DNA of 64,000 nt from a virus (IMGVR_UViG_3300021255_004000:32001-96000); one strand, 5' to 3'; positions 2,096 through 62,979 are shown, numbered from the stretch's first letter. Translations and numbers: made by a program. Notes: generated by a model not told the origin, from the letters alone.

Positions 2096-3370
2096 ATGAG
2101 TTATTTTGGAAAGGTAAGATGGGCAGCATTCCAGCCACTCATTGGCGGCTGCGATATAGGCGCTGAAAAGTCATTTGGCTGTAAACCTACTTGTGTTATC
2201 GACTATGATGGCGTCGCAAACTCTGATCTTTACCTCAACTATATGGCAAATGTCAAAAAGACACCATTAAAACATTTTGTAATTGATGGCGGAGCCTATT
2301 CACTTGCAAAAGACTTGAAGAAAGATGAAGATGGAAATCCTATTTACAGTTGGTCAGATCCTGAACTTCAGAATCTTGATGTTGTTGTAGGCGTTCCTAT
2401 TTGTGCAGGTCTTTCTTCAGCAAACACACAAAACAGTTCATCATCAAAGATGGGCCGCGGTTCTGATGCTATGCAGAACAACAATATGTTGGGTATGCTA
2501 GACATTACACTGAACACAATCAAACCGAAAGTTTACATTTTTGAAAACGCTTACAAGCTTGCAACTCCACTTGGTGCAGGCATTAAAGAAAAGTTGATTA
2601 AACTTGCAAATGAAGCAGGCTACGCAACAAACATCGTTAAGGTAAACACAATCAACCACGGCTTGCCACAGAATCGTACTCGTACTTTCTTTGTTGCTTA
2701 CCGTGGAGATGTTGCTCCTTTGATGACATATGAACCAACACCTTGTCCAACAATTATGGATGTTCTTGAAGGCTTGCCACCTCAGCAGTCAGCATTCCAA
2801 GAAAGAAGCTCTGACGACGGTTGGATTCAGTACTTGAAAGATAAGTGGGGTCCAAATTACCGCGAAGAGTGGGCAAAACACGCAAGCGCTGCTGACTTTG
2901 TCGCCGATGAATGTGGCGATATGGAAATGGCAAAGAAGTACTTTGACGAAAAAGGTAAGAAGATTATCGACTATTGTATCAGCAAGAAAGCTCAGGGCAA
3001 AGGCTGGATGTCAGGTGCTCCACTTTACTATGGTCCTTCAAAACTTCCTTCATTGTATGGCCGCTCAATGGGTCGTTGTTGGCATCCTACTGAAGAGCGC
3101 GGATTCTCATTGCGTGAATGTATGCGTTTGATGGCAATGCCTGATGACTTTGAATGTCCGCCAAAAGGAAAGGCTGGTATGATTGGTCAGAATGTTCCTG
3201 TATGTACTGCAGCTTACTACACAAATCAGGTTTTGAAATATCTTGACGGCGAGTTGAAGATGTCCGAACAGAAAAATGTTGAACAGGATTTCTGCTCAAC
3301 TGGAGCGATTAGGAAAGAAGCAAAGTTAAAGCCTTTACCTAAGACAGGATTTGCTGCAATACTGAAATAA
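2096..3370 (+). CDS. DNA (cytosine-5)-methyltransferase, divergent
   Basis: Catalytic GVPIC, FENA (motif VI), LPQNRTRTF (VIII), RECMRLM (IX), GQNVP (X); atypical motif I FQPLIGG. Confidence 0.8.
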   Translation: MSYFGKVRWAAFQPLIGGCDIGAEKSFGCKPTCVIDYDGVANSDLYLNYMANVKKTPLKHFVIDGGAYSLAKDLKKDEDGNPIYSWSDPELQNLDVVVGVPICAGLSSANTQNSSSSKMGRGSDAMQNNNMLGMLDITLNTIKPKVYIFENAYKLATPLGAGIKEKLIKLANEAGYATNIVKVNTINHGLPQNRTRTFFVAYRGDVAPLMTYEPTPCPTIMDVLEGLPPQQSAFQERSSDDGWIQYLKDKWGPNYREEWAKHASAADFVADECGDMEMAKKYFDEKGKKIIDYCISKKAQGKGWMSGAPLYYGPSKLPSLYGRSMGRCWHPTEERGFSLRECMRLMAMPDDFECPPKGKAGMIGQNVPVCTAAYYTNQVLKYLDGELKMSEQKNVEQDFCSTGAIRKEAKLKPLPKTGFAAILK

Positions 3371-7259: not shown

Positions 7260-8021
7260 TTAATAAATGTTTGAAAGTGTTTTGATTTCGTTATCAAATA
7301 TCTCTTTAATTCCACGCATTTCACGGTGATAATCTTTAGGAGATATCTCCAAGTTTTTACAGATGGTTGCAACAGAGTCACGCTTCCCATCTCCAAACTT
7401 TGCACGAGTATTCCAAATCTTTACCTGTGTTGCATTGAAGCGCTTTGTCAAGCAGTTGTTTACAGCAGCCCAGAAAATCTTTTTCTCTGTCTGTTCTTCA
7501 TAGACTTTTTCTGGAGAGTTTGTTGTCAACTCATCAACAAGTAATGCAGCCTTGTTTTGAGTAAGATACTGACTTGAGTCGCCGTGCAAATCATTGCTGC
7601 CACTTGCCTGATTGTAGTCGGTAAGCATTTCATTTTTTGACTGTTCAATCAACTGCTTTGTGCGGTCACGATTGTAAGTCATCAAATAGCCCCAGTAAGC
7701 AGCATAAAATGTCCAAGTTCTTTTGCCCTGCTTGTTTGTCTTTTTTGGAATCTTTTCAAGTTTGATACTGTCCATAGCTTTTACAAGTTCAGAGTAAACA
7801 TCTGCTTCATAACTTTCAGTGATGTCGAAAATCTGATCTGTTGTAAAGTATGTCTTTTCGAGACGATGAACAAGATCCCACTTCATTTTGTGAGCAAGAT
7901 CAATGTACTGATTGTATGTCTGTTGCTGAAGTTCAACAATCTTTTTTGTGTCGCCTCTCTCCTTTGCAGTTACATAGTCAACTGCCATTTGATAATCATA
8001 AAAATCTTTAGCTTGCGCCAT
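7260..8021 (-). CDS. Putative phage sigma factor (sigma70-family-like)
   Basis: Region-2-like TFYAAYWGYL, SPEKVYE linker, C-terminal HTH (SVATICKNLEISPKDYHREM). Confidence 0.55.
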   Translation of the reverse strand: MAQAKDFYDYQMAVDYVTAKERGDTKKIVELQQQTYNQYIDLAHKMKWDLVHRLEKTYFTTDQIFDITESYEADVYSELVKAMDSIKLEKIPKKTNKQGKRTWTFYAAYWGYLMTYNRDRTKQLIEQSKNEMLTDYNQASGSNDLHGDSSQYLTQNKAALLVDELTTNSPEKVYEEQTEKKIFWAAVNNCLTKRFNATQVKIWNTRAKFGDGKRDSVATICKNLEISPKDYHREMRGIKEIFDNEIKTLSNIY

Positions 8022-9294: not shown

Positions 9295-12200
9295 ATGTTA
9301 TCAACAAAGCAAAAATCTGACTTGTTATTTAAGCATTATCTTGGTGCAGGTTCTACTCGTGATAATCGTGAGTTTTTCGAGGAAGCAATTAAGTCTTCTT
9401 TTGTTGTAAGACCTGACCAGTTATGGACTTATTCTGATAGAATTCCTGATGGTACTGAAGCCACAGGTGGAAAGGACAACATTGAGTACATTATCAATAT
9501 GGGCCTTGATGGAAATGACCCGATCTTTTACCATTACATTAGCGAAGATCAAGATAAAGTTCCACTTGTAAAGAGATACATCGACTTGCCTCTTACAATG
9601 ATTGACAAAGGAACTGACAATGCATTCTTGATTGCTGATGAAGATGGAAATCAAATTAAAGACATCATTCCTTTCAACTATTGTGAAGAGTATTACAACT
9701 ATGTTCTCAAGACTGCTGATGGTAAACGCATTCCTTTTGGTGTAGGTGACTGGAATGTTGATACATACTCAGGTATCGTTACTTTCTATGGTGAATTGCC
9801 TGATGGTGTAGATCACGAACATCCGCCTTTAATATCTTTTTACCAGTACATTGGTGGTAACGGATTCCGTCAAGATACTTATGGTTATGATGGTGCAATT
9901 CTTCCTCTTGATAATGTTGAAATTGCTGCAGGTTCTTGTGCGATAACAAATGGTTCTGAAGGTAGAACTCTTTATGAACATATTGTTGATAAAGCAAACG
10001 AAATCCAAAATGACTTCGTTGATGTATTTGGTTGGGACGGCGCAGACAAAAATGAAGGTATTGCTCTTTCATTTGAGAAAATAATTCCTCTTACTTATAC
10101 ATCAAATCAGGATGCAGTTAAAGGTTATGACCAAGCATCTAATTCTGAAATTGGTACATTGCTTTCAAACAAGACAACCAACTTTGAAGCAGATGACAAC
10201 TATGAAATCGTATTTGCTTCTCAGAAACTTGACCCAACTGCTGCTTACAGAATTGAAATTGCTGAAGGTGTTGCAACAGGATTTGAGAATGATGTTGCTC
10301 AAGATCCTGTAAACATTACAGGTAACGAATGGGGACTTTACAAAGTTTGGTTAAATGACCACGCTTTTGTTGTACTTAAAGTTAAAAATCCTGAAGATGA
10401 AACATTGACATTTACAGTTTCATCAAAGAACAAAGTAATTACTGCTTTGCTTTTGTATTGGAGCGACCAAGACAAACAGTATCAGCCATTCCTTCCAAAA
10501 GAGGACTTGCTTGGTAATTTTGGTTTCCCAGTTGTTACTATCAACGGTCGTTTACCTCCATCTGTTCAGTTGGGTACTGCTGCTCTTGCAACATTCTCAG
10601 ATGTTATTACACCTGATTATTATGGTCCTCGTACATTTGCAGTTGTTATCGCAAACGAAGATGGGACTGATGTAAAGTCAGCTGATTACATTGTAAAGAA
10701 CAAAGAAGATTGGTATCTTAATGACATTCTTGAACAGATTAAAACAAAATATGGAAAAGACCTTAAAGGTACAATCTATTTAAGAGCAGGCCATTATATC
10801 ACAAATGGTGACCTTGACATTTCAATGTTCACAAATGCAATTATCGAAGGTGACCATTTTGCGACAACAATCGATCTTGGTGGACACGCTTTGATAGTTA
10901 AACCTGAAGAAGGAAAGATTGCTGAACTTTGCCACACAAAACTTGCTAATGTAGGTAGTGTTGATATTTCTGCAAAAGGTATCGCAATTCTTTCAGATTT
11001 GGATCTTTCAGGTGTTGACATTGAACTTGAAGCTTATAATTCAGGTAAAGTGCTTGTTCGTTCGGTTTCTGCAAACAATGTTCATATCTTTGGTGAACAG
11101 GATGCTGAACTTCCAAATGTTGACATCAAGAGTTCTTACCTCAACAAAGTTACAGTTGAAAAGAACAAAACATATTTGAGCAATAACACAATTAACGAAG
11201 TTTCTGTAGCAATTCCTCCTGCTGATACAGAAGACAACACGATGGTACTTCGTGGAAATGTTATCAACACTTTGGCAACAAAGTATGATGACTTGTTTAT
11301 TGACAACAATATGATCTTCCGCTATAAAGGCATTGCAGGTTCTGCTGCTAATCAGATTCCTGTAGGTACACCTAAAGATCATACAGTTTTGAACAGTAAT
11401 AAAGATGAGTTGACAACTACAGGTCGTTTCCCTATTTTCAGTAAGGACGACTTCTTGCATATGAAATATGCAGAGTTTGCTTCACCATTCAATTACAACA
11501 AAACAGAAAATATAATTGAACTCCTTTATGATACGGGCGTTCTTAAAATAGTTGATGGTAAACTTACAACAGTTATTAAGTCTGACAGAATTGCAATGTC
11601 AGAGGTTGTGTTTGACCGTCACGAAAACTCTGAACTTGACCCAGTAATTTATAACAACTCACATACATTAAATGATGTATTCAAACACATTTATATGTGG
11701 AAGGCAGACCTTGATCCTAACGGTAAAGTACCGCTTCAGGAATTGCCTGACAGTGTCGCTTATGGTGGTTTGTTATTCGTTGGTACTTGGTCATTTGTAA
11801 ATAACAGTGGTAAATATCCAACTTTCAATGATGCACAAATAAGTTTCAGTGAAGACAAAGTTGTAAATGAATTACAACCTGGTTGGTTCTTCATCGTTTC
11901 AGAAGCTGTTGATACATCTGATACAGATGCAGACAATGATACACCAGTTGCAGAACAAATTGCTGAAGATGGTGTTAAGTTTACTGCTGGTGACTGGGTA
12001 ATTTATGAAGGTAAAGAAAAAGCCACAAAGACAGTCGATTGGTCAAAAGCTGTTACATTCAGAATTGGTGATTATATCATCACTAACAAGAATATGCTTG
12101 CAACTCTTGGACAGACTGATATTTTCCAAATCCTTACTGCTGATACAATCGACAGTTTTGATGATGAAACAAACGGCGGTGTTGTAATTAAGAAAGGTAT

Positions 12201-20608: not shown

Positions 20609-22684
20609 TTATCTTACATTGATTACTTTCATCTTCTGTGCAGCGATTTCTTCGCGTTTGTTTGAAGCAGAGCTTATCAAAGCCTGTCCGCCATCAAAAC
20701 CGCCCCAGCAAACAGCGAATGTATCACCCTTAATTCCTGCGAGTTCTTCAGCCCAGTCTCCCAAGCAGTCCTCGAAGTCGGAGATTACGCAAAGTTTGTC
20801 CTGTTCAGATTTCAAGTACTTTTCCTTTGCATAACGGATTCCACGAGCGATTGATGTACCGCCACCACAGCAGATTGCTTCAAGGTTTGATCTTTTCAAA
20901 GGAAGGTCATCAACAAGGCGAGTGTCCCACAAGATGATTCTTGACTTTGTACCAAACTTTGATTTGTATTTAAGTACTTCAGAAAGAAGTGCCTTAACCA
21001 ATTCAATGTTAACCGAACCTGAAACATCGATTAAAGCAACCAAGTTTCCAGGGCGGTATTCCTCAACAGTTGTAATGCGTGTTCTCATTACACCGCCTGA
21101 AGTTTTACCGCGGTTGTAGTTGTACAGCGGATCCTGACGATCTCTCTGAACAGTTTTGCCGATACAGTTTCTCTCAATGAACTTGAGAACAGATTTGTCA
21201 AGGCGCATTGTAGGAGTTGCATCAACCAAGTTTGTTGACTCTCCATCACCAGGAGCGCTCCAGTCATCTGCATCATCTCCGCCTGAACCTGAAGCAGCAA
21301 CCGCTGCCTGACCCTGCTGACCATTTTCTGCATTTCTGCGGTCCTCAGCAGCCTGAGCCATTGCCTGTGCAAGTTGATTGCCTTTGTCACCGTTCTGAGC
21401 ATTTGCTTTGACAACTGAAGCCTTCATCTTGTTTCCGTTTCCGTTGTTTCCGTTTCCCTGCTCAGGCTTTCCTTTGCCGTCGCCTTTTACTTTTGACTTT
21501 CCGCCTTTACCAGCTTCGTCCTGTCCTTTATCGCCGTTCTTGCCGTTGCCATTCTGATCTTTACCGTTTCCGTTCTGACCATCCTGACCCTGCTGATTTC
21601 CGTTGTTTCCTGACTGGCCCTGCTGATTGCCGTTCTGTCCGTTTTGGCCGTCCTGACTGTTGTTTCCGCCTTCGCCATCTTTTGATTTGTGGTTGAAGAT
21701 TGAAGTTGGGTCATCTTTCAAGCCGTTGTTATTATTCTGCTGCTGAGAATTGTTTCCCTGCTGCTGTTGATTTCCACCCTGAGAGTTTCCTCCCTGCTGA
21801 CCGCCACCTGACTGCTGTCCGCCAGCCTGCGAACCACCCTGAGATGAACCCTGGCCTTGTCCCTGGCCCTGACCTGACTGACCCTGCTGTCCAGACTGAC
21901 CTGACTGTCCGCCCTGCTGCTGACCATTCTGTCCCTGCTGTTGCTGAGCCTGCTGTCTCTGCATCTCATCAACCTGTTCATTGAGTTTGTCCATAAACTC
22001 ATTAGGCTGAGTAAGAATCAAGTGGAGATATCCCATCCAAGTCAAACCGTTAGGGAAGCCGAAGTCTGAAGGATGAACTCCGCGAGAGAACTTGTGGATT
22101 TCATCAGGCTTTTCTTCCATCCATTTTTCGATTGACTGAAGTTGTTCTTCGTTTGCGTAAGAAATAAAGCGGGCAAGCGCAGCATCAGAAATTCTTTCGC
22201 GAACTTCCTCAAAGTCCTTTGCTTCAGGCCAGTACTTACCGTTGATTTCAAGGTCCTGGGTAATGTTGCGGATCATATGAATGAAGCTTTCAGAAACATC
22301 GTCCTCTTCATTTCCTTCCATTTCAATATGTTCGCGGAACTTAGGCCATTTTGACTTGATCTGTCGTGAGGCCTGCATATCTTTGTACCAGTTGTCTTTG
22401 AAGTGCTGCAGTACACAATGTCCTGCCTCGTGCATCATCAACTGTTCTTTTGCAAGGCCGTTTGCTGCATCTGTTGCAAAAATATTGTAAACTCCAGAAG
22501 CTGTCTTACAAGAGCAGCCAGGAGCCATTGTCATAGGATCTTCCATTTCTTCCCAAACCAAGGTATTCATCTGATCCATAACTTCTTCGTAGTTTGGGCT
22601 GTGAATTGGGTCGAGGTGAGGAATGCGAGCAAGGAGTTCTGCTTTCTTTTGCTGCATTTCAAGTTCTTCCATAATTTCCTCCAT
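20609..22684 (-). CDS. Metallopeptidase-like (HExxH) plus vWA protein with Q/G/N-rich linker
   Basis: HEAGH; MIDAS DVSGS, GGGT, SD; ~200-aa low-complexity linker. Confidence 0.8.
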   Translation of the reverse strand: MEEIMEELEMQQKKAELLARIPHLDPIHSPNYEEVMDQMNTLVWEEMEDPMTMAPGCSCKTASGVYNIFATDAANGLAKEQLMMHEAGHCVLQHFKDNWYKDMQASRQIKSKWPKFREHIEMEGNEEDDVSESFIHMIRNITQDLEINGKYWPEAKDFEEVRERISDAALARFISYANEEQLQSIEKWMEEKPDEIHKFSRGVHPSDFGFPNGLTWMGYLHLILTQPNEFMDKLNEQVDEMQRQQAQQQQGQNGQQQGGQSGQSGQQGQSGQGQGQGQGSSQGGSQAGGQQSGGGQQGGNSQGGNQQQQGNNSQQQNNNNGLKDDPTSIFNHKSKDGEGGNNSQDGQNGQNGNQQGQSGNNGNQQGQDGQNGNGKDQNGNGKNGDKGQDEAGKGGKSKVKGDGKGKPEQGNGNNGNGNKMKASVVKANAQNGDKGNQLAQAMAQAAEDRRNAENGQQGQAAVAASGSGGDDADDWSAPGDGESTNLVDATPTMRLDKSVLKFIERNCIGKTVQRDRQDPLYNYNRGKTSGGVMRTRITTVEEYRPGNLVALIDVSGSVNIELVKALLSEVLKYKSKFGTKSRIILWDTRLVDDLPLKRSNLEAICCGGGTSIARGIRYAKEKYLKSEQDKLCVISDFEDCLGDWAEELAGIKGDTFAVCWGGFDGGQALISSASNKREEIAAQKMKVINVR

Positions 22685-41160: not shown

Positions 41161-42549
41161 TTACTTTAACAGATTTTTAATGTTTGCAATCAGAATTGCC
41201 TTGTCAGTTTTTCCGTTGTTTACCTGATCTTTATGGGCAACTTCCAGAGCCTTGCGGAACTTTTCACTTGGCTTGAAACCTAAAGCAATCAGATCATCAC
41301 CAGTTACAATAGGTGCAGGAATTGGCTGACCAATTAAGCTTACAATTTTTGGAGAAGCCAGAGCTTCGTCTAAAGGCATTTCTTCATCGTCAGCAGCAGT
41401 TTTGATACAACCATCGCTGTCGCTTCTGCACAGCTCGCACAGTAAGTCGAAGTCAGGCAGATTCAGAATACTCATAATTGCAAACTTTTTATCCAGCAGG
41501 CCTAACTGATGCATCTTCATATGATTTGCAACTAAGCCTTCAACACGATGAGCTGTTGCACAATCTAATCTTAAGTCTCTCAGGAACTTGTAAGCAATAG
41601 GAGCACCAACTTCTGCGTGATCTTTAACTGCAGGGAAACCATTTTTGCTTAAGCCATTTTTGCGGCCTGAAGCAGGCTTTCCACAGTCGTGCAGAATTGC
41701 GCCCATTATGAAAACGAAACGGTCAATTTCATTTTCAATTTTAGGAGCACGAGCAACTGCAGCTTTTACAACCAGCATTGTGTGGTTGAAAACATTGCCT
41801 TCACTGTGCCATTTTGGGTTCTGCTCGCAAGTTTTCATATCTTCGAAAATCTCAGTTAAGTGAATTGCATCGAAGATTCCCATTCTTCTCATAATTTCAA
41901 AAACTTCCATTGTGAAGTCTTTACCGCCAAAAGTTTTGATTAACTCAGCACATTGTCTTTCAACAGAAACATCAGCAAAAACAACTTCAGGTGTTATTTT
42001 GTTGATGTGTGCCTCGATTGCAGCAACATCCTTTTCATTTGCCTTGAAGCCTTTTGAAGCAACAAAGCGAACATATCGGAAGATTCTTAAAGGATCTTCA
42101 GTGATGCGGTCAACTGCGTTTCCAACAAAACTTAATGTGTTTGATTTGATGTCAGCAATACCACAACCTGTTGGGTCGATAATGTTTCCATCTTTATCTT
42201 CGTACAAAGAGTTTACTGTAAAATCTCTGCGGAAAGCATCATCTTCAATTTTGTTTGAAAACTTGATTGTGGGATGGCGGCCTCTTGTCAGGTCAGAACG
42301 CCAAGTTGCAATTTCAACCTGTTCACCATTGATGATTGGCATTGCAACTCCGTACAAGTTTGCTTTTCTTGTTTCTGTAACACCAAAGATTTTGTTGATC
42401 TCATCAGGTGTTGCATTTGTTGAAATATCATAATCGTGAGGAGTTCTTCCAGTCAGTTCATCACGAACGCAACCGCCGACAAAGTAGGCCTTAAAACCAG
42501 CATTTTCAATAGGTGTAATAACTTTTTTGATAATTTCCTGCTTTGTCAA
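41161..42549 (-). CDS. cca: tRNA nucleotidyltransferase (CCA-adding, class II) with HD domain
   Basis: VGGCVRD, DYD, RRDFTVN, EDPLRIFR, H...HD; array tRNA genes lack an encoded CCA. Confidence 0.9.
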   Translation of the reverse strand: MTKQEIIKKVITPIENAGFKAYFVGGCVRDELTGRTPHDYDISTNATPDEINKIFGVTETRKANLYGVAMPIINGEQVEIATWRSDLTRGRHPTIKFSNKIEDDAFRRDFTVNSLYEDKDGNIIDPTGCGIADIKSNTLSFVGNAVDRITEDPLRIFRYVRFVASKGFKANEKDVAAIEAHINKITPEVVFADVSVERQCAELIKTFGGKDFTMEVFEIMRRMGIFDAIHLTEIFEDMKTCEQNPKWHSEGNVFNHTMLVVKAAVARAPKIENEIDRFVFIMGAILHDCGKPASGRKNGLSKNGFPAVKDHAEVGAPIAYKFLRDLRLDCATAHRVEGLVANHMKMHQLGLLDKKFAIMSILNLPDFDLLCELCRSDSDGCIKTAADDEEMPLDEALASPKIVSLIGQPIPAPIVTGDDLIALGFKPSEKFRKALEVAHKDQVNNGKTDKAILIANIKNLLK

Positions 42550-42571: not shown

Positions 42572-42600
42572 AATATAAAAGACTTGCACGGAAAGTTCAA
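42572..42600 (-). promoter_or_regulatory. Early-type promoter TTGAAC-N17-TATATT
   Basis: Conserved repeat upstream of cca. Confidence 0.75.
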
Positions 42601-43169
42601 ATATTATGCAAAAGTGGATGATTCTTTTTATAGTCGAACTTCAAGCCGTCCTTTACAATTTTGACGATTTCATCGTAGCCTTTTTCATTACCATCAACGA
42701 CAACAAATGGGATTTTATTGGATTCGAGAAACTTGGATGTTTTTCCATCTATCTCTTTAGCTTCGCCTTCAGTTTGATTTCTTCCGTTAGGATTATATGG
42801 CTTCACACGATTGATGACGAAGTTGAAGTTGAAACGATGATACTTTTCAAACTCTTCAAGAGATGCAGCTTTCAACATTGGCTGATCTTCTCTTGCGTAC
42901 AATGCACCAAGAGCAATAGGGCTATCAGTGATAATTACATCGACTTTGCCAAAGCAGCGGCTTATTTTGAAAGACTGCTTTCCTGTAATGTAAAATTGAT
43001 TTTTGAAAACTTCAGAGTTGTTTTCCCAAACTTTATCTTTTGCAAACTCAGAAACATATTCACAGTCAATACCTGCAAGTTTGAGTTTTGCAAAAACATA
43101 AGCGGCGCCTGTAGATTTTCCTGCGCCTGGGCCAGCGAAAAGATTTACAATAATTGTGTTTTTATCCAT
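42597..43169 (-). CDS. P-loop kinase (NadR/nucleoside-kinase-like)
   Basis: AGPGAGKST, EFAK, ITDSP. Confidence 0.75.
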   Translation of the reverse strand: MDKNTIIVNLFAGPGAGKSTGAAYVFAKLKLAGIDCEYVSEFAKDKVWENNSEVFKNQFYITGKQSFKISRCFGKVDVIITDSPIALGALYAREDQPMLKAASLEEFEKYHRFNFNFVINRVKPYNPNGRNQTEGEAKEIDGKTSKFLESNKIPFVVVDGNEKGYDEIVKIVKDGLKFDYKKNHPLLHNI

Positions 43170-43379: not shown

Positions 43380-43389
43380 ATAAAATATA

Positions 43390-43503
43390 GGCCTGTTGTA
43401 AATAGTGCAAGATTTTCAGTCTCGTGTGTCACCGTTTCACCTCATCAGGAAACCCTGATGGTGGGAGTCGAACCCACTTACGATAATAGGAACAACTTTT
43501 GCC
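43390..43503 (-). ncRNA. Y-like stem RNA copy 1 with circularly permuted tRNA-Phe(GAA)
   Basis: Order T-arm, acceptor hairpin, D-arm, anticodon arm inside the conserved stem. Confidence 0.8.
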
Positions 43504-43510
43504 TTATGAA

Positions 43511-46174: not shown

Positions 46175-46260
46175 AAAGCGGGTTGTAAAAATTTCGCCGC
46201 AATGACGAAATATTGGAGTCGAACCAATAATTTCCGTTTAATAGGAACAACCTTTGCTTT
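46175..46260 (-). ncRNA. Y-like stem RNA copy 2 (T-arm plus acceptor-like hairpin)
   Basis: AGC-AAA-GGTTGT-TCCTA...ATTGG-TTCGACT-CCAAT...ACAACC-C-GCT. Confidence 0.75.
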
Positions 46261-46261
46261 A

Positions 46262-46333
46262 TTCCTCTGCTAGGATTCGAACCCAGAACAACTGATCCAG
46301 AGTCAGCAGTGTTACCAATTACACCACAGAGAA
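46262..46333 (-). tRNA. tRNA-Gln(CTG)
   Basis: Loop CTCTGGA. Confidence 0.9.
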
Positions 46334-46486: not shown

Positions 46487-46495
46487 ATAAAATAT

Positions 46496-46570
46496 TGGGG
46501 TGGGTGGAATTGAACCACCGTGTAACCAACTAACCTTTCTGCGGTTTATCAGACCGAGGGTATACACCCC
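46496..46570 (-). tRNA. D-armless tRNA-Ile(GAT)-like RNA
   Basis: Acceptor GGGGTG/CACCCC, CGGT-CTGATAA-ACCG, long variable region, canonical T arm, no D stem. Confidence 0.6.
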
Positions 46571-46587
46571 ATTGTGTTTCAAGTTTT

Positions 46588-47275: not shown

Positions 47276-47342
47276 GGCGAGCTGTAGCAAATATACATTA
47301 ACAGTGTATTGCCTCATCGGCGTAATAGGAACAACTTATGCC
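47276..47342 (-). ncRNA. Y-like stem RNA copy 3 displaying an Asn(GTT) anticodon stem-loop
   Basis: GGC-ATA-AGTTGT-TCCTA...ATACA-CTGTTAA-TGTAT...ACAGCT-C-GCC. Confidence 0.75.
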
Positions 47343-48427: not shown

Positions 48428-48503
48428 TGACGCTGACAGGACTCGAACCTGCGACACCGAGCTTAGAAGGCTCGTGTTCTTATTCCAGCTGAACTACAGC
48501 GCC
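48428..48503 (-). tRNA. tRNA-Arg(TCT)
   Basis: Loop CTTCTAA. Confidence 0.9.
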
Positions 48504-48685
48504 ATATTGAAAGTACTTTATACGTCGGACCAGTCCGTTCAGCTTTCGCCTAGGGAGTTTCGAGGCTCCCACCTACGCATATCAACTTTCTGTGTGCTTT
48601 TCGGGCTTCTTCTACTAAGCACTTAAACTTTCAGTTCTGCTAGAAACCAAAGTTCTTGACGTTCTCTCTAGCAATGAGAACCGTA

Positions 48686-48760
48686 TAGCTGTTGCAGGAG
48701 TCGAACCTGCTATCGTAAAGGATATGAGCCTCACATATTGAACCGTTCTACCCAACAGCG
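48686..48760 (-). tRNA. tRNA-Met(CAT)-like, initiator-like variant
   Basis: Loop CTCATAT; 1:72 mismatch; weak D stem. Confidence 0.65.
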
Positions 48761-48767
48761 ACGTACA

Positions 48768-48891
48768 AAAAGACGAGTTGTATTATTCGTGCTCTAACCG
48801 CTGAGCTATCCGCCCACGAACGAGCGGAGTTGGATTCGAACCAACGACCCCGTGCTTAAAAGGCAACAAATAGGAACAACTTATGTCTTTT
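48768..48891 (-). ncRNA. Y-like stem RNA copy 4 with circularly permuted tRNA-Lys(TTT)
   Basis: TGC-CTTTTAA-GCACG, T arm, acceptor hairpin, D arm, then CG, all inside the conserved stem. Confidence 0.85.
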
Positions 48892-48893
48892 AG

Positions 48894-48966
48894 CGGTGTA
48901 TGCGGGAATCGAACCCGCCATCTCCTGCGTGACAGGCAGGCGAAATAGCCGATATTCAAATACACC
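48894..48966 (-). tRNA. tRNA-Asp(GTC)
   Basis: Loop CTGTCAC, G73. Confidence 0.9.
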
Positions 48967-49175
48967 AAATAAACAAACCACCTTCCAAACGGAACGCCCG
49001 ATACTTGATCTTAATGTCCGCACTTATCCAAGAGTTTCATTTCGCGCGAGAAACTCTCGGGGGTTAGGGAGCTACAGGTGCCTAGGCTTACTACGATTAA
49101 GCCAACAAATGCGAGCTCGTCTCACAAAGGTTTGTACTTTTTGCCAACTTCTGTCTAGAATGAAGTTGAAAGTAG

Positions 49176-49263
49176 TGGGCCGAGAGGGAGTCGAACCCCC
49201 GATGTTTGCCGTAAAGGTGACGGATTTACAGTCCGCTGACTTCGCCACTGGTCACACCGACCC
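49176..49263 (-). tRNA. tRNA-Tyr(GTA)
   Basis: Loop CTGTAAA, long variable arm. Confidence 0.9.
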
Positions 49264-49879: not shown

Positions 49880-50431
49880 TTATGTTAAAAAGATTTTTAC
49901 TTCTTCTATAAAGATTTTAGGATTATTGAAAATATCTTTCCAAGATTTTCTCAATTCTTTCCATCCTTCTTCATTCAGAAGTTTATCTTTCTGAACATCT
50001 CTTTCTTTTTGCTCTTGAAATCTTTCGTGTTGTTCACCATCAATTTCAACGCAAAGTTTTTTGTCAGGCCAAGCAAAGTCCAAAGAAAACCTATGAAAAG
50101 GAACTTCTCTGTAATAATCTTTATCAATTTCTTGACCAAATTCATTTCTCATCATTGTAATAAACCACTCCTCAGGATATGAAGGTTTATTATTCCAACG
50201 ACAATCTCCAATGTTATGAGCTCGACCTTCAGCGTGAGCTTTTTTCATCGAAGCAGAAATCTTTTGTCTAACATCATCCGACATTGTATGTCCGCAATGA
50301 TCCTTCAACTTCTGTCTTGTTTCTTCTGACAAAACAGGTTTTTCTTTTCCAAGAGCTTTAGCCTTAGTATATTGATTTGTACCGTGGCCTTTTCTTGCGT
50401 GCATTGCATCGTACCATTTTTGACTTTTCAT
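49880..50431 (-). CDS. Homing-type endonuclease (NUMOD3-like plus Vsr/DUF559-like)
   Basis: SEETRQKL, SDDVRQKIS repeats; LDFAW...VEIDGEQH...D..L...GW. Confidence 0.8.
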   Translation of the reverse strand: MKSQKWYDAMHARKGHGTNQYTKAKALGKEKPVLSEETRQKLKDHCGHTMSDDVRQKISASMKKAHAEGRAHNIGDCRWNNKPSYPEEWFITMMRNEFGQEIDKDYYREVPFHRFSLDFAWPDKKLCVEIDGEQHERFQEQKERDVQKDKLLNEEGWKELRKSWKDIFNNPKIFIEEVKIFLT

Positions 50432-56719: not shown

Positions 56720-56897
56720 TTGTCACCTCAATTCCCAAATGTTTTAACATCAAGCGGCAGCCCCAAGAAAATGTTTTGAAACGAGATGGATCCATCTGAT
56801 GTTCTTTTTGATAATCTTTTTCCCATTTCTCACCTTCTCCTGTCCAAAGGTCACAGACAAGATTTTGAAAATCTGCAACATTCATTTTCTCAGGCAT
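56712..56897 (-). CDS. Hypothetical protein
   Basis: Start MPEKMN after AAGGAG. Confidence 0.5.
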   Translation of the reverse strand: MPEKMNVADFQNLVCDLWTGEGEKWEKDYQKEHQMDPSRFKTFSWGCRLMLKHLGIEVTND

Positions 56898-57918
56898 TCT
56901 TTTTCTCCTTAAGTAATGGACATTTGTCACCACATACATTGCAAGTTTCCTGAATATCCATTGCCCCGAAAAGATTTATGTGAGCAGAACATTGTGTTCT
57001 TTGTTTTTCTTTCTTTGCGATAATCGGATCTTCTTCCTCGTGAGCTTCCCACCAATCATTTGCAATTCCATTCACAAGTTTTGCAACTCGCCATTTCTGA
57101 CACTCATCTTCAACATCTTCAACGGTTGGCATCTTGATATGTTCACTGCGGGAAAGCATACACTCTGTTGAAATATCAAAACCTTCTTTCAGTGCAAGTG
57201 TGTAACCAATGATTGCGTTCAATTCATCATAACCATTTACAGCATCAGTAAGCAGAGGACCCATTGCACAAATGCGTCTTGTTCCTAAAATGTATTTGTA
57301 AATTGGAAACTCAGAAATTGGGACATGCCCGAATGCTTCGATTTGATAGTCAAGAATTGTTGCATCACTGAACTTATCATAAAAGTCGCAAGCAACTCTC
57401 AATTCATCGATTGTAAGTTTATTTGCTTTTTCACAAGCGCCCGGGCGAAGAGATGTACCCAAAAAGATTGTGTGTACGCCGCAGTCATATGCATAAAGAA
57501 CAAGTTCACTGAAGTTTTTGTAAAATGGATTTTCCCACTGATCATCTTTTTCAATTTGTTCACGAAGGAACTGACCACCGCGGGAATTGATAACATATCC
57601 GCTTCTTTCTGCTTCACGAATAAGATAAGCAGGTGTAATATGAAAAGTCATTGCTTTTACACCATAAGACGCCTGCCGTTTGATTGTATCTTTGATGTCT
57701 TCTTCAAAAAGAATACTTTCATAAATCGGCGCAGAACAAAGAATGACATTTTTGCCAACTTTGTCCCGAACGGATTCCCAAAGAGCTTTCACTCTTGGTT
57801 TGTCAACTGAAATAACACTGACATAATCGATGTTGTACTTGGAAGCGAGCTCGAGTTTTTTCAACTCATCTGTAAATGATTGCTCGGGATATGACAACCC
57901 AATGTTTAATTTAAGCAT
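56890..57918 (-). CDS. ThiC-like non-canonical radical-SAM protein
   Basis: SRGG, LRPG, GHVP, GPLLTD...GYD, EHIKMP, C-terminal CNVCGDKCP. Confidence 0.75.
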   Translation of the reverse strand: MLKLNIGLSYPEQSFTDELKKLELASKYNIDYVSVISVDKPRVKALWESVRDKVGKNVILCSAPIYESILFEEDIKDTIKRQASYGVKAMTFHITPAYLIREAERSGYVINSRGGQFLREQIEKDDQWENPFYKNFSELVLYAYDCGVHTIFLGTSLRPGACEKANKLTIDELRVACDFYDKFSDATILDYQIEAFGHVPISEFPIYKYILGTRRICAMGPLLTDAVNGYDELNAIIGYTLALKEGFDISTECMLSRSEHIKMPTVEDVEDECQKWRVAKLVNGIANDWWEAHEEEDPIIAKKEKQRTQCSAHINLFGAMDIQETCNVCGDKCPLLKEKKNA

Positions 57919-58276: not shown

Positions 58277-59512
58277 TCACTCCTCAGTACCATCAGTCAT
58301 CTGCATACCCATAAGGTGCAAAGTATCACGGTACAGTGTTCTTGAGTTTTTACCCTTTTCAATGAAAGCATCAAAAAGTTCATCAGCTTTCTTTCCATAA
58401 AGTTGTTTGAACAAAGCAGCATCTTCTGGAAAATCTTCATTCACTGAAGTGTAGAACTCTTTCTTATCTGCATACTTTGCTGCGATTACTGTGTTGACAT
58501 ATTCAACTTTTTCTTCAAGCCATTTACGGTACAGCTGAACATTGTGAGAGATTTCCTCAACACGAGCTTTTACTTTTGGATCAGCAGCGCAAAGGTCATC
58601 AACTTCATTCATACAGTAATATTTGAACAAGCGGTTGTCACCGAAGTCTTCGCCTCTTGACTCAAACTTTACGCGAATGTAATCATCGATTTTGACTTTT
58701 ACACGGTTGAAATATTTATCACATACAACAACGCCTTCACCGTTATCTTTTACATTCCAACCTGCAAGTACATCAAGCATTTCCTTTGCGGATTTGAAGT
58801 TGTACATCTTTGGAGTTTCAAAAGGAAAATGGAATCTTTCTTTTGCTTCAGTGAAAGTTATTTCATCGCCACTTGGCATACGGAAACCAATAAGCCAAAG
58901 TTTTGCATCTTTTACCAAGTCAGTGTGAATTCTGTTCCAAGGTGACTCCAGTTCAAACATTGCTGTTGAACCTTCAGGCATTCTTTTTGCCCATTCACAA
59001 TCAGAGAAAAGGAAACCATCTGAGAAGAAAGCTGATGAAACGTCATTCTTTAATGCCCGCAAAAGAACATCAGACATATTGTTCAATCTTGGCAAGCCTG
59101 GGACATAATCAACAGGAGCGCCTTTCTCATTCTCAGTAATCACACGACCGTTTGACATCCAATAAACATTGCCGTGCCATTTGAACGCTTTGAAAATCCA
59201 GCCGTCACGCTTGTGGGAAACCCAAGCAGAATCCCAGTCAATGTCAGCAGCAACGCCTTCATCTTTGTAATTCCAAAACTTTGTGAATGGAGCACAGATG
59301 ATTTCACCTGTAGTTTTGTCAATTACAGTACCACGACACTGACACATTATATCAAAGATTTCCTTGTCATCAGGCATATCCATAAGATTGTACATAAGTA
59401 CAACCCAGTTGCGGCCTTCAACAGGATAAATGGATTTCATATTTGGTCTGAGGATTTCTTCCCAATTTGGATTTGATTTTACGAAGTTTTCAAGTTTCTC
59501 AAAGTGTTTCAT
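58277..59512 (-). CDS. T4 Rnl1-type RNA ligase
   Basis: CRG...PFTKFWN, HKRDG (motif I), FELESPWNRI, EGVVV, RVKVK. Confidence 0.85.
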   Translation of the reverse strand: MKHFEKLENFVKSNPNWEEILRPNMKSIYPVEGRNWVVLMYNLMDMPDDKEIFDIMCQCRGTVIDKTTGEIICAPFTKFWNYKDEGVAADIDWDSAWVSHKRDGWIFKAFKWHGNVYWMSNGRVITENEKGAPVDYVPGLPRLNNMSDVLLRALKNDVSSAFFSDGFLFSDCEWAKRMPEGSTAMFELESPWNRIHTDLVKDAKLWLIGFRMPSGDEITFTEAKERFHFPFETPKMYNFKSAKEMLDVLAGWNVKDNGEGVVVCDKYFNRVKVKIDDYIRVKFESRGEDFGDNRLFKYYCMNEVDDLCAADPKVKARVEEISHNVQLYRKWLEEKVEYVNTVIAAKYADKKEFYTSVNEDFPEDAALFKQLYGKKADELFDAFIEKGKNSRTLYRDTLHLMGMQMTDGTEE

Positions 59513-60164: not shown

Positions 60165-62066
60165 TTACTCAACAAGTTTAATAAGGTCGTTTTTGCTCAT
60201 CTGAGTAAGGTCAATGTCAGGCTCATCTTCAACAAACTCAAAACCTGCGGCAGCAAGTAAGTCGTTCAACTTGATGTAGCTGTTTGCTTTTACCTTGCCC
60301 TGTGCTTCAATAATTTTCATCATTGAAACAGAAGGCACTCGTGCAGCACCAGCTTCCATATCTGACATAAAGATTTTGCCATCTTCAATTTTTGCAACAA
60401 CCTTTTGACCATAAGTATCGTGCTGAAGTTCTGCTTCAAACACAATCTTGTTTGGGTCAACCATCGCGTCTTTAGCGCTATATCTGCGGTTCATTCTGTC
60501 CATATTTGCTTTGTCTGGGTCAACAGCAACGAAAAGTTTGAACTTTGAATGCTCATCTCCTGAGAACTTGTTGATTGAAATTACACCATCAGGAGCGCCC
60601 TTTCCGATGTAAATACATTCGGCAGCTTCAGGATTTGCGCTTGTCATATCACCAGAGTAGATGATCTTGCCATACTTACCACCGTGATAGTCGCCGTTCC
60701 AACCATAATGCTGGCCTGTCTTGCTGACATAATGAAGGTCATAGTCTCTTACGCCCCATTCATCACGCCAGTAAATGCCGAATACATTGTCCTTCTCTGC
60801 GAGAGGAATTGCAGTACCCATAGGATAGTTGCCAACAAAGTTCTTTTCAGAAGTTGGAATTGTCAACTCAAGACCCTTAGGAAGTTTGATTCTTGTTGGT
60901 CTTTCGAGAACAACATCATTTCCTTCAGCATCTTTTGTTGTAACCTTTGTGATGGCTTTCTTTGCCAAGTTGTTGATGTATGAGTCCTTAAGGATTGCAT
61001 ACAACTCAGCAAGGTACTTTTCATCACAAGAAGCCTGATAACCTTCGCGAACGAAAGTCTTTCCGTTTCTGATTACAAACATACGGCCTTTAACATCCTG
61101 ACCGTTCACGCGTTCCATAATGCCCTGCATAAGCTGACCTTTCTTGAAGGCAGTCAAAGAATCAACTTTTTCTGCTGCTTCTTTAAGATAAGCGTCCTGC
61201 TGACCTTCAGGATTGAAACATCTTTCCCAGAAACCAATCTTCATTGGCTTGTGGTTCTTAACAGCCAACTTACGAATGTGGTTGATTGTTGTATGTGTTT
61301 CAGCGCATTTCATTGCAAGAATAAGCGGCTTGTAACGATAGAAGATAGTTGACAGAGCAACATCTCTTTCGCTCAAGATCTTGTTCAAGTCTTTCTTCTG
61401 CTTTGCAGGCAATGCAGCAACCAAGCTTTTGATACGAGCGATTGACTCTCTTGACTTAACAAGCATTGCTGTGTCCTGTGTCAAAAGATACATAACAACA
61501 CGCAATACTGAAATTGGCTGCTTAGGGTATGCGCCCATCTGAACAGCGAAGATAGCCTGAGCTTCTTTGTTTGCAATTTCATCAACATCAACTTTGTTCA
61601 AGAAGTCATAATCTTTGATGTAGTCCATCAAAAGCTGAAGTGTCTTTTCGTTGATTGCAATGCCTGACTTCAACATTCCGTAGCACTCTTCGAAGATTTC
61701 ATCTTCTGTTGCAGGAAGAATGACTTTGTACTTTTTGTACTCGATTACAGGCGGTTCATCGTTCGGAACATAGCCGTTGCCTTCCTGAGTATGGCCTGTA
61801 CCATAAGTTGAAGCATAATGCATCCACTGGTCAAAAGCGAGCTCGAGGCGATCCTTTGATACAACATCTTCAAATGTTTTGTAGAAAGTTGAGTTTGGAT
61901 TGTAAGTCTCATTCTCGAGAAACTTTACAATTTCTTTGCTTCCGCAGCAATCTGGGTGGACAAGGTAACCTGCCTTCATAGCCTTTTCGTTTACTGCTTT
62001 GAATGTTGCAAGGTCACAAGTACAAGAAGGAGCTTTGTTAAAAAGCTGAATAAGTTTCCAGTTCAT
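60165..62066 (-). CDS. ROT/TROVE-like helical protein with C-terminal TerD-like domain
   Basis: N-terminal NSTFYK...DQWMHYASTYG, helical middle, TerD-like FGIYW...DYDLH...YSGDMTSA...AAECIYI. Confidence 0.6.
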   Translation of the reverse strand: MNWKLIQLFNKAPSCTCDLATFKAVNEKAMKAGYLVHPDCCGSKEIVKFLENETYNPNSTFYKTFEDVVSKDRLELAFDQWMHYASTYGTGHTQEGNGYVPNDEPPVIEYKKYKVILPATEDEIFEECYGMLKSGIAINEKTLQLLMDYIKDYDFLNKVDVDEIANKEAQAIFAVQMGAYPKQPISVLRVVMYLLTQDTAMLVKSRESIARIKSLVAALPAKQKKDLNKILSERDVALSTIFYRYKPLILAMKCAETHTTINHIRKLAVKNHKPMKIGFWERCFNPEGQQDAYLKEAAEKVDSLTAFKKGQLMQGIMERVNGQDVKGRMFVIRNGKTFVREGYQASCDEKYLAELYAILKDSYINNLAKKAITKVTTKDAEGNDVVLERPTRIKLPKGLELTIPTSEKNFVGNYPMGTAIPLAEKDNVFGIYWRDEWGVRDYDLHYVSKTGQHYGWNGDYHGGKYGKIIYSGDMTSANPEAAECIYIGKGAPDGVISINKFSGDEHSKFKLFVAVDPDKANMDRMNRRYSAKDAMVDPNKIVFEAELQHDTYGQKVVAKIEDGKIFMSDMEAGAARVPSVSMMKIIEAQGKVKANSYIKLNDLLAAAGFEFVEDEPDIDLTQMSKNDLIKLVE

Positions 62067-62089: not shown

Positions 62090-62145
62090 AGGCGGGTTGT
62101 AATTTGAAAAACTTTCATATTCCTTGTTAGGAACAACCGTTGCCT
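62090..62145 (-). ncRNA. Y-like stem copy 5, in the 5' region of the ROT-TerD gene
   Basis: GGC-AAC-GGTTGT-TCCTA...ACAACC-C-GCC ending 24 nt before ATG. Confidence 0.75.
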
Positions 62146-62785: not shown

Positions 62786-62916
62786 GAGCGGGAATTATTG
62801 AAACCCGTCCTCGGCGGCTTCTCCCCAGCTAGGGAAAGTGTAGCAATCCACTCGCATCCTAAGATGCCCTAGCACTGAAGTATAATTTGCGTTAAGATAG
62901 GAACATTCCTATGCTC
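62786..62916 (-). ncRNA. Y-like stem RNA copy 6 with multibranch cargo
   Basis: GAGC-ATA-GGAAT-GT-TCCTA...ATTCC-C-GCTC. Confidence 0.65.
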
Positions 62917-62927
62917 AGTAAACATGG

Positions 62928-62979
62928 TCGGCGAGAAGTAAAACAAATCCCGATTGTAAATAGGAACCTCTTATGCCGA
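62928..62979 (-). ncRNA. Y-like stem RNA copy 7 (minimal)
   Basis: CGGC-ATA-AGAGGT-TCCTA...ACTTCT-C-GCCG with compensatory changes. Confidence 0.7.

Follow-up and report, generated by a model that had tools for sequence, protein, structure and literature searches.

A complete circularly permuted tRNA-Lys(UUU) in a phage tRNA array, most likely a tRNA look-alike of a widespread handle RNA family

Described systems and the anatomy of the Lys element

The split tRNA halves of Nanoarchaeum equitans are trans-spliced at a BHB motif, and the two-piece tmRNA derived from permuted ssrA genes fulfils its ribosomal role with its pieces unligated. In phage T4, Pnkp and Rnl1 repair host tRNA-Lys that has been cut in the anticodon loop by PrrC. 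The permuted and stem-interrupted tRNA genes described so far are all from archaea and algae and rely there on the BHB motif and EndA; our literature search found no report of permuted tRNA genes in bacteria or phages. In the permuted genes of Cyanidioschyzon merolae, other algae and Thermofilum pendens (PMC3978253; PMC3218864), the halves appear in reversed order, 3' before 5', with a short acceptor linker between them; no nucleotide is missing, and maturation proceeds through a circular intermediate.

Y RNAs occur with Ro60 (Rsr) in bacteria and mycobacteriophages (PMC4201824; 10.1101/312249). The Ro60-binding motif in these RNAs is GNCGAAN0-1G, or GGUCCGA in animals, and the YrlA RNA of M. 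smegmatis is cleaved by RNase P and receives CCA in vivo (PMC4201824). The literature on jumbo phages describes only ROT/TROVE proteins with a tRNA-like partner, found in a small subset of these phages (PMC7824862).

The window analysed here is a 64,000-nucleotide stretch of phage DNA, the sequence of which is present in bovine and sheep gut sequencing runs. Its minus strand carries at least 35 tRNA genes, and between tRNA-Asp (48893-48966) and a tRNA reported by Rfam only (48686-48760) we identified a 124-nt element in which the order on the RNA is tRNA 3' half, GUUCGU, tRNA 5' half (Table 1). When the 5' half and the 3' half are rejoined (CG|UGC), ARAGORN recognises the resulting 72 nt as tRNA-Lys(ttt), in which the acceptor stem has 7 bp, one of them G-U, the anticodon stem CGUGC/GCACG has 5 bp and the anticodon loop has 7 nt. 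In genomic order, the element was called neither by ARAGORN nor by the Rfam tRNA model. The preliminary description of this DNA had proposed the same order of parts, the presence of every tRNA nucleotide and the CG/UGC junction, and was correct in all these details. The window contains a complete permuted tRNA in a phage.

The 124-nt RNA is predicted to fold at -40.6 kcal/mol (z = -3.28), a stability equalled by 0 of 200 shuffles, and its minimum free energy structure contains the closing stems, the T arm, the closed acceptor hairpin and the D arm. The flanks of the element, 21 nt and 14 nt long, pair mutually through S1 and H2, which are separated by AUA opposite a single C, and H2 is followed by UCCUA. 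This bulged stem, referred to here as the handle, adds 13 bp of pairing to the Lys element.

Table 1. Coordinates of the Lys element, of the other handle RNAs and of the relevant protein genes in the window, followed by the tRNA-bearing members of the handle family
Feature	Position	Strand	Details
Whole element: handle and circularly permuted tRNA-Lys(UUU)	48768-48891	(-)	124 nt; supported by sequence, fold, YrlA match and ortholog in L132
Handle 5' strand	48871-48891	(-)	S1 AAAAGAC 48891-48885, bulge AUA 48884-48882, H2 AGUUGU 48881-48876, UCCUA 48875-48871
5' linker UUUGU	48866-48870	(-)	unconstrained; UCAAAU in ortholog
tRNA 3' half, nt 29-72	48822-48865	(-)	UGC; loop CUUUUAA; GCACG; variable loop GGGUC; T arm; acceptor 3' strand
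Anticodon UUU	48860-48858	(-)	within 3' half
T arm GUUGG-UUCGAAU-CCAAC	48845-48829	(-)	
Acceptor 3' strand UCCGCUC	48828-48822	(-)	
Acceptor-closing loop GUUCGU	48816-48821	(-)	first G is the would-be discriminator base; GUUUCAU in ortholog
tRNA 5' half, nt 1-28	48788-48815	(-)	GGGCGGA, UA, D arm GCUC-AGCGGUUA-GAGC, A26, C27 G28
3' linker AAUAAU	48787-48782	(-)	
Handle 3' strand	48781-48768	(-)	H2' ACAACU 48781-48776, opposing C 48775, S1' GUCUUUU 48774-48768
Second handle RNA, permuted tRNA-like cargo	43389-43504	(-)	T arm, acceptor hairpin CAUCAGG-GUUU-CCUGAUG, D arm, intact anticodon arm CGAGA-CUGAAAA-UCUUG (GAA); break in variable region
Handle RNA, cargo of T arm and 8-bp hairpin	46175-46260	(-)	no D arm
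Handle RNA, 40-nt cargo	47276-47342	(-)	not tRNA-like
Handle RNA, 27-nt cargo	62090-62145	(-)	ends 24 nt upstream of the 633-aa ORF start codon
Handle RNA, 21-nt cargo	62928-62979	(-)	
CCA-adding tRNA nucleotidyltransferase	41161-42549	(-)	phrog_2244 2.7e-58
P-loop protein (AAA_28)	42597-43169	(-)	possibly polynucleotide kinase; weak assignment
Rnl1-type RNA ligase	58277-59512	(-)	phrog_562 3e-29; PF09511 34.6 bits
633-aa protein, candidate handle-RNA partner	60165-62066	(-)	N-terminal half helical repeats; residues about 420-580 TerD-like beta-sandwich
Complete permuted tRNAs			Lys UUU: this window, L081; Thr GGU: L108, L044; Thr UGU: L061; Asn GUU: L118, L128, L015, L095; Met CAU: L095; Pro UGG: L066
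Handle-interrupted normal-order tRNAs			Lys UUU: L131, L019; Thr UGU: L005; Glu UUC: L011; Gly UCC: L112, L093; Glu CUC: L038

The Lys element shares with the algal and archaeal permuted genes the upstream position of the 3' half, the short acceptor linker and the completeness of the tRNA. However, those genes have the BHB motif, EndA and a circular intermediate, whereas the phage element, from a virus of a bacterial host, has no BHB, and EndA was absent from 18 related records. Instead of the BHB geometry (3-nt bulge, 4-bp helix, 3-nt bulge), the Lys junction features a 7-bp stem, a 3x1 internal loop, a 6-bp stem and A/U linkers. As in the split tRNAs of N. equitans and in two-piece tmRNA, separately ended pieces are held by an extra helix, but neither of those systems is known to involve such a handle or a linked protein of this family. 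The T4 system likewise brings together an Rnl1-type ligase and tRNA-Lys(UUU) in an anticodon-cleavage conflict (context in PMC7824862); in the window, unlike in T4, the break is encoded in a phage gene and lies within the anticodon stem.

A close architectural match is YrlA, with its terminal stem serving as a protein handle and a tRNA-like domain in which the T arm is followed by the closed acceptor stem and then by the D arm. The Rfam YrlA model (RF02553) aligns with the Lys element at 32 bits (E = 1e-5; model positions 24-84 on 48788-48852) and with the second permuted RNA of the window (43400-43505) at 18.5 bits over model positions 1-114. Permuted elements in eight other phage loci score 37-48 bits, and nine of the 11 matches extend over the full model; the gathering threshold of 69 bits is reached neither by the Lys element nor by any of its relatives. 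The 7-bp acceptor stem is also that of M. smegmatis YrlA. In common with YrlA and other Y RNAs, the phage RNAs are encoded beside a protein gene on the same strand, often several together and some of them not tRNA-like (as YrlB), in phages and with a link to RNA ligases. There are also differences. The 5' strand of the Lys element, AUA-AGUUGU-UCCUA, lacks the Ro60 motif and resembles it only loosely (GU-UCC-UA compared with GGUC-C-GA). YrlA genes lie on the same strand as a TROVE/Ro60 gene and no more than about 4 kb from it; here, no TROVE gene was found among the 20 window ORFs scanned, the linked protein being composed of helical repeats and a TerD-like domain. Finally, the Lys element retains a complete anticodon stem-loop, making it a whole tRNA rather than a partial mimic.

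The tRNA directly downstream of the permuted Lys (48686-48760, minus strand) has a CAU anticodon-like loop. This tRNA and another at 46495-46571 (minus strand) score above the Rfam threshold (37.3 and 32.9 bits, respectively) and were missed by ARAGORN. Also inside the tRNA array is a 183-aa ORF (49880-50431, minus strand) with a DUF559/Vsr-like endonuclease domain, which may represent a homing-type nuclease.

The handle RNA family

The handle is a conserved bulged stem of the form ..GC/AUA/NNNNGU-UCCUA ... ACNNNN/C/GC.., that is, an S1 helix ending in GC, a 3-nt A-rich bulge opposite a single C, a 6-bp helix ending in G-U/A-C, and UCCUA. The Lys element conforms to this consensus with one mismatch, its S1 ending in AC rather than GC. 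With at most one mismatch allowed, the 5' motif GCAHANNNNGTTCCTA has eight matches in the window compared with 0.87 expected, and in a complete 424-kb IMG/VR phage the motif has 10 matches compared with none for a control pattern. Our scan of viral contigs identified at least 109 non-redundant handle RNAs in about 40 contigs. For the pairing test, in which pairing was not presupposed, a partner was defined as a perfect H2 complement followed by one base and then by at least 3 bp of S1; such a partner accompanies 109 of 150 non-redundant 5' motifs, compared with 13.6 when the flanks were shuffled. The handle RNAs contain 36 different H2 sequences, and the handle is a real covarying structure. 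At loose thresholds, Rfam matched no family to the handle-only RNAs.

Besides the Lys element, the window contains five handle RNAs, and a degenerate extra copy may follow the one at 62928-62979, at about 62830-62915. Ordinary tRNA finders miss or mis-call these RNAs, whatever their function. An example is the tRNA-Arg(cct) called by ARAGORN at 46204-46280 (minus strand), which overlaps a tRNA-Gln by 19 nt, is unreported by Rfam and coincides with the handle RNA at 46175-46260; this call is probably spurious, produced by the tRNA-like cargo.

The sequences enclosed by the handle, termed here the cargos, are bimodal in size. Among the 109 non-redundant handle RNAs listed, 69 have cargos of 17-62 nt, incompatible with a tRNA, and 40 have cargos of 71-133 nt, most of which are tRNA-shaped. 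This sets the phage motif apart from that of the algal and archaeal permuted genes, since it also encloses RNAs that are not tRNAs. At least 11 complete permuted tRNAs, in the window or on other phage contigs, can be rejoined to a canonical cloverleaf, with the break at nt 28/29 or 29/30. In further long cargos, the break lies within or adjacent to the anticodon loop or, as in 43389-43504, in the variable region; a few others are normal-order tRNA mimics, one of them with a GCAA tetraloop replacing the anticodon loop. Rejoining of cargos broken in or near the anticodon loop, such as those of L099 and L105 (called Val-GAC), gave ambiguous solutions; by eye these read as Leu(UAA) broken at 31/32, and they were left uncounted.

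In about 10 normal-order tRNAs, a handle with a loop-capped S1 (often GNRA) forms a 39-50-nt insertion after nt 28 or 29. Both forms, permuted and interrupted, represent circular permutations of one structure, namely a tRNA with a bulged helix emerging from the 5' strand of its anticodon stem. This shared structure suggests that the permuted genes arose from tandem interrupted ones, as in the model proposed for Cyanidioschyzon (PMC3978253). In C. merolae, too, one terminal motif marks both permuted and intron-containing tRNA genes, and tandem duplication of an interrupted gene is a plausible origin (PMC3978253).

The anticodon of these tRNAs turns over fast on a conserved body. Orthologous handle-interrupted tRNAs (L011 at about 1540-1650, L112 at about 3040-3150, L038, L071 and L093) carry UUC, UCC, CUC or AUC on a scaffold that also shows a compensatory T-stem change from U-A to C-G, and L005 and L056 combine one scaffold with UGU and AUU, respectively. 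The switched anticodons include ones with A34. Among the permuted tRNAs, the linkers that join the handle to the tRNA differ by 4-8 nt, and in the permuted copy of L069, ACCA is encoded after the acceptor 3' strand.

Several variants were observed in addition. On L130 and L133 (Ga0114931 contigs of 2.5-3.3 kb), a handle 5' strand precedes an ACCA-ending 3' half of tRNA-Lys(UUU), and the matching 5' half and handle 3' strand were not found on them; these may be split tRNA-like genes or truncated contigs. L002 (3190-3270) and L003 contain a tRNA-like sequence with the acceptor stem AGUCAGG/CCUGAUU and with AAUAAGGUUGUUCCUA at the position of the anticodon arm, possibly a handle-related variant, for which ARAGORN gave no call. 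The permuted tRNA-like cargos of L066 (about 9446-9607) and L074 (about 7402-7566) have acceptor stems closed by a structured insert of 45-48 nt.

The linked protein and the RNA-processing genes of the carriers

Two of the handle RNAs in the window (62090-62145 and 62928-62979) lie directly upstream of an ORF encoding a 633-aa protein, with the Lys element 11 kb away in the tRNA array. Homologs of this protein are encoded in 22 of 23 handle-bearing records and in all 12 of those that are at least 90% complete, including phages of 35-43 kb. In at least 20 loci, the homolog is directly downstream of the handle array, starting within about 30-300 nt and on the same strand wherever this was checked. 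This gene linkage points to the protein as a candidate partner of the handle. The family comprises more than 1,156 members, none of which has a name or a Pfam domain; in a set of 50,697 phage records, only three distinct phages, all of them cultured, encode the protein. In one of these, Synechococcus phage S-CRM01, the homolog g174 is located within the tRNA array and has five handle RNAs immediately upstream, including a permuted, tRNA-like one. As a cultured carrier, S-CRM01 makes the function of these RNAs testable at the bench. The 48-aa ORF annotated opposite this handle array, upstream of g174 (g173c; L138 2623-2769), is probably no real gene.

The 633-aa protein matched no Pfam, NCBIfam or PHROG family, and neither the protein nor its profile had a PDB sequence match. 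An AlphaFold model built from 21 homologs (pLDDT 80) predicts an N-terminal half of helical repeats and a C-terminal beta-sandwich, and in structure comparisons of the model, this sandwich matches TerD (3ibz, probability 1.0; 2qz7, Z 9.5). The identification of this protein as Ro60 is unsupported: Foldseek and VIA-align returned only TerD, for the C-terminal domain, and the match to Ro60 (1yvp; Z 5.2 over 66 residues) does not rise above helical-repeat noise. Structural matches to botulinum toxin (TM about 0.08) are meaningless, and a HEPN-type Rx4-6H motif around H272 was discarded with its arginine replaced by serine in 3 of 21 homologs. The TROVE/Ro60 domain (PF05731) was absent from the 20 window ORFs scanned and from 38 handle-bearing records, a set that includes 12 with a completeness of 90% or more. 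The ORF at 20609-22684 was also considered as a Ro60 candidate; its weak VWA match, accompanied by a Gly/Gln-rich region, does not support this.

The RNA ligase and CCA enzyme that had been attributed to this phage are both encoded in the window, the former an Rnl1-type ligase. Rnl1 and/or RtcB are present, alongside a CCA enzyme, in the larger phages of the family, including that of the window, and both ligases are present in G001 and G025. A ligase of their own is absent from 5 of the 12 complete handle-bearing phages. The complete 35-43-kb carriers of protein and handle RNAs have no Rnl1 or RtcB, and no tRNA genes were detectable within 2-13 kb around their arrays. EndA (PF01974) was absent from 18 related records, with archaeal controls positive. 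Between the RNA ligase gene and the tRNA array of the window lies a gene for a ThiC-family radical SAM protein (56890-57918, minus strand; PF01964, 5.5e-37).

Function of the Lys element

Based on these comparisons, the Lys element is most likely a tRNA look-alike of an undescribed RNA-protein particle and not an ordinary tRNA gene. In the specific form that we favour, with a rough probability of 0.55, it would be a Y-RNA-like tRNA mimic acting with the linked protein in a new RNP, probably in a conflict over tRNA damage and repair. The analogy with Y RNAs is architectural only, as the linked protein has no detectable TROVE/Ro60 similarity. A non-decoding tRNA-Lys look-alike had been the alternative offered in the preliminary description, and it proves nearer to the context: the ends of the tRNA enter a handle common to about 100 other small RNAs, which are mostly unable to encode a tRNA and are tied to one uncharacterised protein.

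The tRNA-Lys(UUU) body is opened between nt 28 and nt 29, with its ends running via the A/U linkers into the handle. The handle is the constant part of the RNA family, and the cargo the variable part, ranging from hairpins through normal-order mimics to complete permuted tRNAs. We predict that the handle binds the 633-aa protein in the way that the Y RNA stem binds Ro60, and that factors recognising tRNA would encounter an authentic tRNA-Lys shape and anticodon loop in the tRNA part. In a conflict over tRNA cleavage and repair, the RNA might conceivably be a bait or competitor for anticodon nucleases, such as the Lys-specific ones named in the preliminary description, or it may provide a platform beside the ligase and the CCA enzyme. 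RNase P may open the 7-bp acceptor hairpin and CCA may then be added, as in M. smegmatis YrlA; the handle would hold the resulting two-piece RNA together.

We favour this reading because the topology equals that of the YrlA tRNA-like domain and because a handle devoted only to maturation would be pointless in the 69 listed RNAs whose cargos have no tRNA to release. Some tRNA-like cargos even lack an anticodon loop. The linkage of the 633-aa homologs to handle arrays, including that of S-CRM01, argues in the same direction, as does the occurrence of protein and handle RNAs in small complete phages without nearby tRNA genes or a ligase. Anticodon switching on a fixed body, A34 included, would be odd for decoding tRNAs. 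In addition, the permuted Lys is redundant with two normal-order tRNA-Lys(UUU) genes of the window, both of which have A73, whereas the permuted copy would have G73. Other features weaken the reading and fit a precursor better. The 5-bp anticodon stem, the 7-nt loop with U33 and A37 and the retention of all tertiary-interaction bases go beyond known YrlA mimics, the break is always placed where one sealed nick restores a perfect tRNA, and the larger phages, including that of the window, encode Rnl1 and/or RtcB.

If they are mimics, these RNAs would constitute a Ro60-independent cousin of the Y RNA particle with a real tRNA-shaped cargo, a fast-changing anticodon and, in the Lys element, the anticodon arm included in the mimic, and they would bear directly on phage answers to tRNA-cleaving defences. 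The Lys element exposes a widespread phage RNA family, with more than 100 non-redundant copies, coupled to a nameless protein family.

The strongest competitor, although unlikely in our estimate, is that the element is a true permuted tRNA gene with the handle as the phage counterpart of the BHB signal, matured to a working tRNA-Lys(UUU). In this case, the handle would be removed by a nuclease, possibly the linked protein or one supplied by the host, and Rnl1 or RtcB would join nt 28 and nt 29, whether within a circular intermediate or once RNase P has opened the acceptor loop. Trimming of the 3' end and addition of CCA would complete the tRNA, and the handle insertions that resemble introns in normal-order tRNAs would undergo the same splicing. 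The completeness of the tRNA and its canonical rejoined form are consistent with this route. So is the position of the break after nt 28 or 29 in at least 11 permuted and about 10 handle-interrupted tRNAs, in which handle removal would leave a sealable nick in a perfect 5-bp stem. The motif common to permuted and intron-type forms, as in C. merolae (PMC3978253), the ACCA encoded in L069 and the preservation of all tRNA bases in an ortholog while its linkers drift also speak for a gene, as do the enzymes available: the window phage encodes a CCA enzyme and a possible kinase besides its Rnl1-type ligase, and G001 and G025 encode both Rnl1 and RtcB.

Against this route stand the absence of BHB geometry, the absence of EndA from 18 related records, the complete carriers without a ligase of their own, and the many handle RNAs with no tRNA to release or with tRNA-like cargos devoid of an anticodon loop. 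The anticodon switching, the redundancy with two normal Lys(UUU) genes and the prospective G73 are further difficulties, and with linkers of varying length a cut at a fixed distance is not obvious. No observation indicates the circular-intermediate route that the preliminary description had considered conceivable, and the RNA evidence, assembled contigs from six RNA libraries that cover parts of the tRNA array, is neutral on processing. These contigs are colinear only: contig X16 covers 48482-49182 colinearly with the DNA, and a back-joint at 48788/48865 is absent among the 15 listed of 26 joints, although contigs cannot exclude a joined form or demonstrate its absence. Contig X17 skips from 48765 to 48909 and appears to come from a relative in which different sequence separates the two tRNAs.

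Acting as a mimic and being matured are compatible, as the linked protein could be a processing factor. A broader proposal, which we regard as doubtful, is that bacterial phages run BHB-independent tRNA splicing and un-permuting, with the handle as a mark of both permuted genes and intron-like insertions at nt 28/29, the protein recognising the handle and directing its excision, Rnl1 or RtcB sealing the anticodon stem, and the supply of functional tRNAs being controllable or shielded from host anticodon nucleases. If the handle RNAs are precursors, they would represent a new tRNA splicing system.

A two-piece tRNA that works without ligation appears improbable. Here, RNase P would open the acceptor loop, the handle, or the stem left after trimming, would keep the halves together as in two-piece tmRNA, and the RNA would be charged and used on the ribosome or by an aminoacyl-tRNA-dependent enzyme. 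[quoted passage not shown] However, a helix of about 45 nt that exits the anticodon stem at nt 28/29 would be expected to clash with the 30S subunit, G73 is unusual for Lys, and the short-cargo members and the anticodon switching count against it as well.

Least probable by far is that the element resembles a tRNA by chance or is a functionless relic left by rearrangement of tandem tRNA-Lys genes. The same array does contain tandem Lys genes, spaced by 4-9 nt, which makes a duplication/deletion route conceivable, but the permuted copy is no recent duplicate of the three other Lys genes of the phage by alignment, with only loose similarity to the two tRNA-Lys(UUU) genes, and the design recurs with covariation in many unrelated phage contigs. 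The ortholog of the Lys element, on metagenome contig L132 (Ga0326514_10006736), has no changes in the 72 tRNA nt and none in 27 handle nt, and both handle strands are identical. All changes within the element are confined to two loops: UUUGU of the 5' linker is replaced by UCAAAU, and GUUCGU of the acceptor loop by GUUUCAH (interpreted as GUUUCAU). That the ortholog conserves every tRNA base and that the design recurs across many phages indicates that the Lys element is under selection and no relic.

Searches for further relatives by nucleotide sequence in 50,697 phage records returned matches to tRNA-Asp only and no close relative; an exact search of viral contigs for the junction and a locus search based on the CCA enzyme gave no match either. 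In L132, the 130 nt upstream of the element are identical to the window and the sequence after it is wholly divergent. Compared with 48600-48767 of the window, the minus strand of L132 is unrelated past the 3' end of the Lys element and continues with a different tRNA, placing a recombination breakpoint exactly at the element boundary.
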